Sequence record: MK327928.1
DNA from: Escherichia phage vB_EcoM_G2133
Strand: one strand, 5' to 3'
Length of the DNA: 64,000 nt
Made by a program: the position numbers and the translations under genes. Each line of letters opens with the position of its first letter. Positions within the stretch are counted from its first letter, which is position 1. Positions 44,228 through 47,573 of this stretch are shown here, piece after piece. The notes beneath the pieces were generated by a model that worked only from the letters and a program-made list of their open reading frames with translations, did not search any database and had not been told where the DNA came from.

Positions 44228-44506
44228 TCAAAATGTAATTTCTAACCAATCACCATCACGCTGATCACTATTGACTTTAAAGCTGAATCCTTCTTTTCTC
44301 AGCCAATCACCAATTTCTTCAGTAATCAATTTATCACGAGCAATACAATAATAATTAAAATGTGTTTTACCTTGTTCAGCTGCTTTATTAGCAAGTTCCG
44401 AAAAATCTTTAATAAAACATTCTAGCTTAAACTGTTTACTTTTGAATGCTTTTTCGCGTAATTGATTAGCAAAAGATTCATTTTCATAAAGATCATACTG
44501 TTCCAT
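44228..44506 (-). CDS. hypothetical protein (T4 24.2 position)
   Basis: 92-aa ORF between rnlB and hoc. Confidence 0.5.
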   Translation of the reverse strand: MEQYDLYENESFANQLREKAFKSKQFKLECFIKDFSELANKAAEQGKTHFNYYCIARDKLITEEIGDWLRKEGFSFKVNSDQRDGDWLEITF

Positions 44507-44708
44507 TTTTCACCTTTTTATTGATATGTCTTTTTCTATAGACAACTTTTTCTCGAGTTTCAAATTTATTCTTAGCAGTCATAGCTCGAGCCCATAATAC
44601 AGCCACTTCTTTTGCCTGTAAGTTTAATTCACGAGCAATTTCAATGAATGACTTTCCAGACTCATGAAGAGTAAACACCACAACCTCAGTTCTCATAATC
44701 AATCTCAT
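44493..44708 (-). CDS. small helix-turn-helix-like protein (T4 24.3 position)
   Basis: 71 aa; HTH-like segment SGKSFIEIARELNLQAKEVAVLWARA. Confidence 0.5.
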   Translation of the reverse strand: MRLIMRTEVVVFTLHESGKSFIEIARELNLQAKEVAVLWARAMTAKNKFETREKVVYRKRHINKKVKNGTV

Positions 44709-44777
44709 GTTATCGAGTTGGTGCCATTATATACATCATTTTCTGATTATGTTTTGTGTGCTTTCAAAATGAAGAAA

Positions 44778-44791
44778 GGGGCCGAAGCCCC
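44778..44791 (-). terminator. terminator hairpin downstream of hoc
   Basis: Minus strand GGGGCTTCGGCCCC (UUCG tetraloop) followed by TTTCTTCATTTT. Confidence 0.55.
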
Positions 44792-44797
44792 TTATGA

Positions 44798-46216
44798 TTA
44801 TGGATAGGTATAGATGATACCAGTTTCTAAAGCAGTTTTATGAATGATGTATCCATTACGCGATTCTTGAACATCAACTTCTGGATAGTCTTTCATCATC
44901 TTCTGAAGAGTGTAACGATGCAGGTAGTATTTACTATCTGGATCTTCAGTTTTCCAATCTTTACCTTCTTCAGTCATTTTTTGGATTTCATCCATAACCC
45001 ACCAACCGCACCAGATATAAGCTGAGCTACGATGTGGAAGAGGATGAACATAAGGTAATTCACCTTCTGGTTCCGGAGCAACTTTATCAGTCACTTGAAC
45101 TTGACCTGTGGCTTTAACTGTTTTACTATCATAGTCAGTTGCTGTAACGACAGCAGTAACTTCAATAGTTTGACTTCCAACAGATGAGGTATCAACAGTA
45201 TATACGTTAGTTGACCCTTCCACAGGAGAAGAATCTTTCTTCCATGAGTAAGTAATTTGTGCTGCTTCAGGTGCGCCATTAACATTAGCAGTAAATGTAG
45301 CCGAAGCATCTTGCTGAACATTAATAGAAGGAGGAGTCAATGTAACCTGTGGATTCATTGTCTTCTTATTAACTGTCAATGATACTTCATTGGAAGTAAC
45401 TTCCTTTTCATTATAATTTTCTGCAGTTACTTGGGCTACGCATTTAATTCTTTTTACTCCACTTGTAGTTGGAGTATAGTTAAATGTAGAGTTAGTTTCT
45501 CCACCAACTTGTGAATCATCTACATACCACTGATACGTAGCAGACGCTCCGTCAGGTTGAGAAGCTAATGCAGCAGTAAATTGAACCGGGGTTCCAATTA
45601 CTCCAGCAGCAGGACTAGCAGGAGTTACTGCCAAGGTAGTTGTCTGTGTCTTTTTATTAACTGTCAATGATACTTCATTGGAAGTAACGCTCAGTGCATC
45701 ATAATCTGTCGCAGTTACTTGAGCTACACACTTAATTTTTTTAACTCCGCTTGTAGTAGGAGTATAATTGAATGTAGCAGAAGTTGCTTCGCTCACAGGA
45801 GAACCGTCAACGTACCATTGATACGTAGCAGATGCGCCCGATGGCTGTGAAGCTAAGGCAGCAGTAAATTCAACGGCTGTTCCGATTACTCCTTCTGGAG
45901 GACTATTAGGAGTTACAGCTAAGGTAGTTGTTTGTGTCTTATTTTGAACTGTGATAGTTGTACTAATTTCAGCTGTTTCAGCTTCAGAATCAGGAATAGT
46001 ATTTGTTGCAACTACCTTAATAGTCTTTTGACCAGCAGGTCCTTTTAATACATAATCAAAAGTTGCTGCTGATCCTTCTTGGGGAGCATTATCTACGCTC
46101 CAAGCATAGGTAATAGTTCCACCTCCAGTTTCACCACTGGGTGTAGCAGTAAACTGCTTGGTTTCATCAATAACCCCTGTTGGTGTTTTAGGAGTTATAT
46201 CAACTGTAAAAGCCAT
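44798..46216 (-). CDS. hoc: highly immunogenic outer capsid protein, with an extra duplicated Ig-like domain
   Basis: N-terminus MAFTVDITPKTPTGVIDETKQF and C-terminal capsid-binding region (LPYVHPLPHRSSAYIWCGWW) match T4 Hoc; 472 aa with two ~96-aa Ig-like units in tandem. Confidence 0.92.
   Translation of the reverse strand: MAFTVDITPKTPTGVIDETKQFTATPSGETGGGTITYAWSVDNAPQEGSAATFDYVLKGPAGQKTIKVVATNTIPDSEAETAEISTTITVQNKTQTTTLAVTPNSPPEGVIGTAVEFTAALASQPSGASATYQWYVDGSPVSEATSATFNYTPTTSGVKKIKCVAQVTATDYDALSVTSNEVSLTVNKKTQTTTLAVTPASPAAGVIGTPVQFTAALASQPDGASATYQWYVDDSQVGGETNSTFNYTPTTSGVKRIKCVAQVTAENYNEKEVTSNEVSLTVNKKTMNPQVTLTPPSINVQQDASATFTANVNGAPEAAQITYSWKKDSSPVEGSTNVYTVDTSSVGSQTIEVTAVVTATDYDSKTVKATGQVQVTDKVAPEPEGELPYVHPLPHRSSAYIWCGWWVMDEIQKMTEEGKDWKTEDPDSKYYLHRYTLQKMMKDYPEVDVQESRNGYIIHKTALETGIIYTYP
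45365..45940. repeat. tandem direct repeat (2 x ~288 bp) inside hoc
   Basis: Near-identical blocks, e.g. ttattaactgtcaatgatacttcattggaagtaac at about 45368 and again at about 45655; encode two ~80%-identical Ig-like domains. Confidence 0.85.
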
Positions 46217-46906: not shown

Positions 46907-46955
46907 AATATTTCCTCAGTATAAATATAGATATATTTATTACTCGGAAAATAGT

Positions 46956-47573
46956 ATGTACCACTTTGTATATGAAACAACAAATCTAATAAATGGTAAA
47001 AAGTATATAGGAAAACACTCTACTGATGACTTGAATGATGGTTACCTTGGTTCCGGTAAGGCAATTCAGCAGGCTATAAAGAAATATGGTGAAAACAATT
47101 TCTCTAGAACAATACTAAAAGAGTTTAAAACTTCCGAAGAAGCGTACATGTATGAAGAAGAAATTATAACTCCTGAACTAATAAAAAGCAAAAATTATTA
47201 TAATATGAAACCTGGTGGAATTGGTGGAATTGTTATGACTACAGAGGTTATAGCAAAGATGAAAGAATCTTCCGCTAAGAGATTTGAAAACTCACCGGGC
47301 ACGGTATTAGGTACAACTTGTTACACTAATGGAACTAAAAATATTTTTATTAAGCCTGGAGAACTTGTTCCAGAAGGATTTGTAAAAGGGATGGTTCATC
47401 CTAATAGAAAGTCCAGAAAAGGATGTAAAGTCAAACCGACTACCACAGGAACTTTTTGGATCAATAATGGCACAATAAATAAATTAATACAACCAGACGG
47501 TATTATTCCCGACGGATTTATTAAAGGTCGTCTCATGAAAAGAGATTCTAAAGGCAAATTTAGTAAGGCATAA
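46956..47573 (+). CDS. segE: GIY-YIG homing endonuclease
   Basis: GIY-YIG module HFVYETTNLINGKKYIGKHS...GYLGSG; position between inh and uvsW as for T4 segE. Confidence 0.85.
   Translation: MYHFVYETTNLINGKKYIGKHSTDDLNDGYLGSGKAIQQAIKKYGENNFSRTILKEFKTSEEAYMYEEEIITPELIKSKNYYNMKPGGIGGIVMTTEVIAKMKESSAKRFENSPGTVLGTTCYTNGTKNIFIKPGELVPEGFVKGMVHPNRKSRKGCKVKPTTTGTFWINNGTINKLIQPDGIIPDGFIKGRLMKRDSKGKFSKA

Follow-up and report, generated by a model that had tools for sequence, protein, structure and literature searches.

The hoc gene of Escherichia phage vB_EcoM_G2133 is a common two-unit allele whose tandem Ig-like units appear to be old paralogues

The hoc locus and its neighbours

The stretch of DNA that we analysed, hereafter the window, comprises 64,000 nucleotides of Escherichia phage vB_EcoM_G2133 (MK327928.1). 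At positions 44798 to 46216 it carries a gene on the minus strand whose parts, listed here in the direction of transcription, are referred to throughout.

44798..46216, minus strand: hoc coding sequence, 472 aa, four Ig-like domains and a C-terminal capsid-binding domain (ORF, PHROG and PDB matches)
45941..46216, minus strand: Ig-like domain 1 (D1), aa 1-92 (alignment to T4 Hoc; AlphaFold2 pLDDT 85-93)
45653..45940, minus strand: repeat unit A, aa 93-188, the N-proximal copy of domain 2 (AlphaFold2 pLDDT 93-96)
45654..45688, minus strand: stretch of 35 nt at the 3' end of unit A with an exact match at 45366-45400, encoding ...TSNEVSLTVN
45365..45652, minus strand: repeat unit B, aa 189-284, the second copy of domain 2 (Pfam PKD at aa 197-267)
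45366..45400, minus strand: the exact counterpart, at the 3' end of unit B, of the 35-nt stretch in unit A
45077..45364, minus strand: Ig-like domain 3 (D3), aa 285-380 (Pfam Ig_3 and I-set at aa 289-374; AlphaFold2 pLDDT 89-94)
44798..45076, minus strand: C-terminal capsid-binding domain with stop codon, aa 381-472 (alignment to T4)
44776..44793, minus strand: strong intrinsic terminator, a hairpin (AAGGGGCTTCGGCCCCTT) with a T run after it, shortly 3' of the hoc stop codon

The predicted protein matched PHROG 1149, 'Hoc-like head decoration' (E 1e-138), and T4 Hoc in the PDB (5vf3_Z; E 8e-218), the latter in two stretches with one unit skipped; phrog_21694 matched aa 408-472 (E 1e-41). The neighbouring products matched Inh, gp24.3, gp24.2 and RNA ligase 2, and the T4 gene order rnlB-24.2-24.3-hoc-inh-segE is kept around the gene. 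The position within rnlB-24.2-24.3-hoc-inh, the string of Ig-like domains and the capsid-contact residues described below are all those of the Hoc family; the ORF, the matches and the gene order establish the gene as hoc in the T4 arrangement. An earlier sequence-only reading of this DNA had called it a 472-aa Hoc, which the ORF, the PHROG 1149 and PDB matches and the synteny bear out. The hoc of vB_EcoM_G2540-3 is 99.5% identical over the full 1419 nt (7/1419 nt differ).

Terminators are annotated in G2540-3 and fPS-90 at the place equivalent to that of the hairpin downstream of hoc. The minus strand has no canonical late promoter, TATAAATA, directly upstream of either inh or hoc. This T4 late-promoter motif occurs 23 times in the window (9.9 expected), and one copy (46920..46927, plus strand) lies just upstream of segE. 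The segE-like ORF itself (46956..47573, plus strand), which encodes a GIY-YIG homing endonuclease, separates inh from uvsW in the window, T4, G2540-3 and T4_ev151 and is missing from SF2-1, PP01, UGKSEcP1 and fPS-90, in which uvsW abuts inh; it is a mobile-gene presence/absence polymorphism adjoining hoc. The gp24.3 homologue (44493..44708, minus strand) is a 71-aa ORF in the window and is annotated with 56 aa in T4 and 67 aa in G2540-3, indicating that the choice of start codon differs between annotations. Two ORFs that lie within hoc in another strand or frame (44840..45025, plus strand; 45091..45321, minus strand) had no supporting evidence and were taken as spurious.

The additional length of Hoc is a second copy of domain 2

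When aligned with T4 Hoc (376 aa), the window protein differed in length by a single block of 96 aa that repeats T4 domain 2. Unit A is the block opposite the gap in this alignment, and unit B shares 91% nucleotide identity with T4 domain 2 and 99.7% with the single unit of Shigella phage SF2-1. The sequence-only reading had put T4 Hoc at about 376 aa and proposed one extra Ig-like domain relative to it; the T4 record indeed holds 376 aa with one domain-2 unit, and the alignment, Pfam and the AlphaFold2 model all identify the added 96 aa as a second domain-2 copy. Pfam domains recognised in the protein were PKD, Ig_2, Ig_3 and I-set. D1, the two units and D3 are mutually 33-44% identical (E 1e-9 to 1e-12), indicating that all four Ig-like domains are paralogous; the A/B pair is the youngest layer of serial internal duplication in Hoc.

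A repeat search returned two direct 288-nt copies (45359-45646 and 45647-45934; 79% identical), and Tandem Repeats Finder reported a period of 288 with 2.1 copies, 79% matches and a score of 750. Identity at a 288-nt offset, computed in 30-nt bins, was 0.63-0.97 within the repeat and 0.17-0.53 elsewhere in hoc, a difference indicating that the repeat is real and far beyond chance. Comparison of unit A with unit B revealed 78.8% nucleotide identity, with 61/288 positions differing and a longest identical run of 35 nt, and 76 identical residues out of 96 (79.2%) in the protein. The blocks originally delimited, 45365..45652 and 45653..45940, are the detected repeat in codon and domain register, and the estimate of roughly 80% identity between two Ig-like units of about 96 aa was accurate (79%). 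The description of these two ~288-bp blocks as near-identical holds only in part: the repeat is confirmed by both searches, but copies that differ at 61 of 288 nucleotides are not near-identical. The suggestion that an assembly collapse or expansion had made two units out of a true one, in whose favour one can cite only that tandem repeats are in general risky for assemblers, is vanishingly improbable and was rejected on copy divergence and recurrence in independent genomes, since copies that are 21% diverged with no identical run above 35 nt let reads be placed unambiguously, G2540-3 carries the 99.5%-identical 1419-nt gene, and genes of equal length occur in a few hundred other records (extrapolated from two samples), including PP01, HP3, fPS-90 and BASEL phages.

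Predicted fold and capsid binding

We built an AlphaFold2 model of the window Hoc on 50 homologues (mean pLDDT 84). The model contains four beta-sandwich domains, at approximately aa 1-92, 93-188, 189-284 and 285-377, with pLDDT 85-96, and is poor at the C-terminal domain (pLDDT 37-61). The domain prediction that had been proposed as a check on the extra domain returned both Pfam Ig/PKD matches and four beta-sandwich domains. The top Foldseek matches in the PDB were likewise strings of four Ig domains, namely Dscam Ig1-4, Sidekick Ig1-4 and ICAM-5 D1-D4. When the residues that distinguish unit A from unit B were placed on the model, 16/20 fell outside predicted strands (Fisher p = 0.011), suggesting that the two units present different sets of loops.

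In T4 Hoc, the residues that contact gp23 are Y293, H295, H299, R300, Y304, W306, W309, W310, D313, Q354, E355-S-R-N-G359 and Y360 (PMC10385173). Every one of these is present in the window Hoc at T4 numbering +96, and in the alignment the C-terminal domain differs from that of T4 at one residue. Given this unchanged anchor, the window Hoc should bind at the centre of gp23 hexamers as T4 Hoc does. T4 Hoc is a linear fibre of ~180 Å with three Ig domains (PMC10385173); from the domain layout we infer that the fibre of the window phage would be one Ig domain longer, or roughly a quarter.

Hoc with two or three domain-2 units is common among relatives

Among the 120 best protein clusters (90% identity level), Hoc had 376 aa in 79, 472 aa in 29 and 567-570 aa in 9, corresponding to one, two and three domain-2 units, respectively. 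Nucleotide records were assessed by their span and by matches to a 60-nt query placed over the junction between two units, which can match contiguously only in multi-unit genes. With this junction query, 24/60 records sampled evenly down a ranking of 591 phage records were multi-unit. In an even sample obtained with the full gene as query (~52 Tequatrovirus-type rows), about 20 records spanned 1419 nt, 28 spanned ~1131 nt and 2-3 had three units; a three-unit protein query returned ~23 records with a contiguous match of ~1704 nt (568-aa Hoc). On the basis of these two 60-row systematic samples, we estimate that at least two units are present in roughly 40% of ~600 Tequatrovirus records. The 580 records with at least 80% query coverage are not a count of 472-aa alleles, because two overlapping BLAST pieces together bring one-unit genes to 100% coverage as well. 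IMG/VR yielded 21 loci, too few for a census.

Genes of equal length in many independent isolates are 88.9-98% identical to the window hoc at the nucleotide level. The window hoc is a common allele of a known modular protein and is already in the databases: a 99.5%-identical counterpart is on record, and nothing about the gene is unusual. The comparison of Hoc length among close relatives, which had been suggested as a test of a recent event, speaks against one: 472 aa is a common length and ~40% of the sampled relatives are multi-unit.

In several deposited genomes hoc appears to be split or frameshifted, as in MZ501066 (FriedrichMiescher), MZ234018 (101117BS1) and MH550421 (T6). One example has 'Hoc part 1 / part 2' over 1417 nt, another has two CDS within 1418 nt, and a third spans 1132 nt and has no CDS. 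These records fit either a non-essential gene or sequencing errors.

Units A and B appear to be old paralogues

Units A and B differ with a dS of 0.71 and a dN of 0.14 (dN/dS 0.20). Orthologous segments of hoc in the window and T4 have a dS of only 0.17-0.34. In six genomes with two or three units, paralogous dS within a genome was 0.63-1.2, whereas orthologous dS between the window and any of the six multi-unit genomes did not exceed 0.46 (dN/dS 0.07-0.32). Consistent with this, the first units of the window, PP01, fPS-90, UGKSEcP1 and T4_ev151 cluster together (85-97% nucleotide identity) but are only 75-82% identical to any other unit, and an A-like first unit followed by a B-like second unit was found in ~28/30 two-unit protein clusters. 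Since paralogous dS exceeds orthologous dS and the position of each unit is conserved, the A/B split is older than the diversification of the sampled multi-unit alleles. Judged by these sequence comparisons, the duplication is old and its copies have diverged, and both units are kept under purifying selection.

A recent tandem duplication in the window phage's own lineage, as the sequence-only reading had proposed, would account for a repeat that keeps the reading frame perfectly and spans exactly one domain. We nevertheless consider it highly improbable and rejected it on dS and on positional orthology across phages. The copies are not near-identical, synonymous sites included (61/288 nt; dS 0.71, against 0.17-0.34 between window and T4), and the pair is not restricted to this genome or its closest relatives; the A-then-B order recurs in diverged phages, where orthologous units are closer to each other than paralogous units are.

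Domain-2 units are mosaics, consistent with recombination between units

Twenty residues distinguish A from B, and among the units of other phages the A and B states are shuffled in three cassettes (unit aa 12-34, 46-55 and 78-84). One-unit alleles can be pure A (P0087, P0069), pure B (SF2-1, P0099) or clean A-to-B chimeras with differing switch points (P0092, P0064, P0091); B-to-A or multi-switch mosaics, T4 included, also occur among them. This mixture of A-to-B chimeras with B-to-A and multi-switch mosaics is equally open to ordinary allelic recombination, which could also explain the B-then-A unit of T4 and some mosaics that are not simple deletion products.

The single domain 2 encoded by T4 hoc (L001:2688-3818) has B-like states at the first 14 of the diagnostic residues and A-like states at the final 6 (the TDYDALS cassette), indicating that the textbook Hoc is itself a mosaic of both unit types. 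Of two phages whose names share a prefix, T4_ev151 (L026) has three units and T4_ev240 (LR597657) has one, with an A-to-B chimeric pattern.

The hoc of Shigella phage SF2-1 equals the window hoc minus unit A, with 99.0-99.7% nucleotide identity. In its single unit, the base at unit position 9 is that of A and the bases from position 21 onwards are those of B. This pattern, by which SF2-1 also counts as an A-to-B chimera, is consistent with deletion by unequal crossing-over, a signature that consists of a single nucleotide. Between the window and SF2-1, BLAST blocks that contain hoc and its flanks are only 91-94% identical while hoc itself is 99% identical, indicating that the hoc allele has moved by recombination. 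One-unit Hocs share their frames (D1, D3 and C-terminal domain) with two- and three-unit Hocs at 98-99.6% identity, so that copy number is decoupled from the rest of hoc. Variability is lowest at the ends of the domain-2 unit, and the 35-nt identical runs located there are a plausible substrate for unequal crossing-over. We infer that unequal crossing-over and conversion have probably recurred in a highly recombinogenic phage.

The two-unit allele could also have arisen by unequal recombination, during co-infection, between diverged one-unit alleles of A type and B type, in which case the A/B divergence would date the alleles and not the duplication. Both pure-A and pure-B one-unit alleles exist, and hoc alleles evidently move between genomes, as the window and SF2-1 illustrate. 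We consider this origin unlikely, however: several one-unit alleles switch from A to B in the direction that deletions from an A-B array would produce, and the A-then-B order is nearly fixed among multi-unit alleles whose orthologous dS reaches 0.46, so that any such founding event would itself have to be old.

Our preferred explanation, which we hold with high confidence, is that the hoc of the window is the common two-unit allele, in which A and B are old paralogues under purifying selection, that copy number has been changed by recombination between units, and that a longer capsid fibre is to be expected. Hoc is the non-essential capsid decoration fibre of T4-like (Tequatrovirus) phages, and its domain 2 is an Ig/PKD-like module of 96 aa, for which a unit of 288 bp codes; one, two or three tandem copies give 376, 472 or 568 aa. 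Unit A followed by unit B is no fresh duplication, and copy number and unit content would shift by homologous recombination between units, through unequal crossing-over or conversion, in co-infection or during replication, with the highly conserved unit boundaries probably favouring such exchange.

More tentatively, the domain-2 array may act as a recombination-driven diversity cassette that reshuffles three loop cassettes and changes fibre length over one to three units, selected by mucosal glycans or by anti-Hoc antibodies in the animal gut. The 376-aa Hoc of T4 would then be only one of the states of a phase-like polymorphism and may itself have originated by deletion or mosaic recombination. 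We regard this broader proposal as speculative and doubtful.

Possible consequences for adherence

The Hoc of PNJ-6 is reported to bind MUC2/fucose at D1 residues E29 and G33 (PMC11150434), both of which are present in domain 1 of the window Hoc. In PNJ-9, the reported MUC2-binding site consists of domain-2 residues S183-L184-T185 (PMC11853027), and an SLT motif is found at the equivalent position in both window units. With two units, the protein would present one further set of variable domain-2 loops to glycans or surfaces; a longer reach and extra glycan-binding valency of the 472-aa Hoc are plausible, as is an effect of the longer fibre on adherence.

Alternatively, the extra domain might be a neutral length polymorphism of a non-essential protein, leaving adherence and fitness unchanged. 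Phages can do without Hoc under laboratory conditions (PMC9958956), one, two and three units are found side by side on near-identical frames, and some records appear to carry a frameshifted or split gene. This alternative deserves to be taken seriously, yet it seems the less probable one, given that both units are under purifying selection (dN/dS 0.07-0.32), that the A/B differences concentrate in loops, and that the MUC2-binding residues of PNJ-9 lie in domain 2 with SLT in both window units.

Hoc serves as the model in work on how phages adhere to mucus, and it is in wide use as a scaffold for display and vaccines. The functional and structural studies of Hoc that we retrieved used the three-Ig form of T4 or PNJ-6, or a two-Ig variant, and none used a four-Ig form. 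Roughly four in ten sequenced T4-like coliphages naturally have a four-Ig Hoc and a few per cent a five-Ig Hoc. The natural copy-number series on near-identical frames could be used to test fibre length and domain-2 valency against mucin binding, persistence in the gut and immunogenicity; the sequences are already deposited, with an annotated Hoc in a few hundred records (extrapolated). In the searchable literature we found no experiment or virion structure for a 472-aa Hoc, and no description of one-to-three copy variation of domain 2 within Tequatrovirus.

Comparison with known Hoc proteins

T4 Hoc (highly immunogenic outer capsid protein; NP_049793; PDB 5VF3, 8T1X) is encoded at the same locus, between inh and 24.3, and has one domain-2 unit in 376 aa, compared with two in the 472 aa of the window Hoc. 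Its single unit is B-like over most of its length and ends in an A-like C-terminal cassette. The 472-aa Hocs of vB_EcoM_G2540-3, VEc20, NBG2, BF15, PP01, HP3, fPS-90 and the BASEL phage AdolfPortmann have the length and the A-then-B order of the window protein, and deposited 472-aa Hocs differ from it by point differences only (88.9-99.5% nucleotide identity). The 568-aa, three-unit Hocs (UGKSEcP1/2, YUEEL01, slur03/08/14, T4_ev151) share its frame and unit family, with an A-like first and a B-like second unit; their third unit is a distinct subtype, 98% identical between UGKSEcP1 and T4_ev151 and ~85% identical to B.

We also scanned more distant Hocs for internal repeats by offset identity. 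In IMG/VR, L009:2501-3907 encodes a 471-aa Hoc with D3-like tandem copies that are 80% identical at a 94-aa offset, and L008:2501-3910 has the same architecture with D3-like copies 51% identical (offset 94-95 aa). These two Hocs (471-472 aa) belong to more distant Tevenvirinae and are 47-50% identical, and their D3-like duplication is independent. Relatives with fewer domains were also seen (L010, 377 aa; L014 and L018, ~280 aa). An independent D3-like duplication together with shorter forms indicates that gain and loss of domains is a recurrent, ordinary mode of Hoc evolution.

Hoc homologues are known to combine a conserved C-terminal anchor with a variable number of Ig-like domains, from 1 to 10, the latter in phage Muldoon (Fokine et al., 2023; PMC10385173), and the Hoc of PNJ-9 lacks domain 3 (Fu et al.; PMC11853027). 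The copy-number-variable, mosaic domain-2 array, of which the T4 form is one state, is a modest, testable by-product of our analysis. Whereas Fokine et al. (2023) compared distant phages and PNJ-9 represents a domain loss, the window exemplifies variation in domain-2 copy number within a genus.
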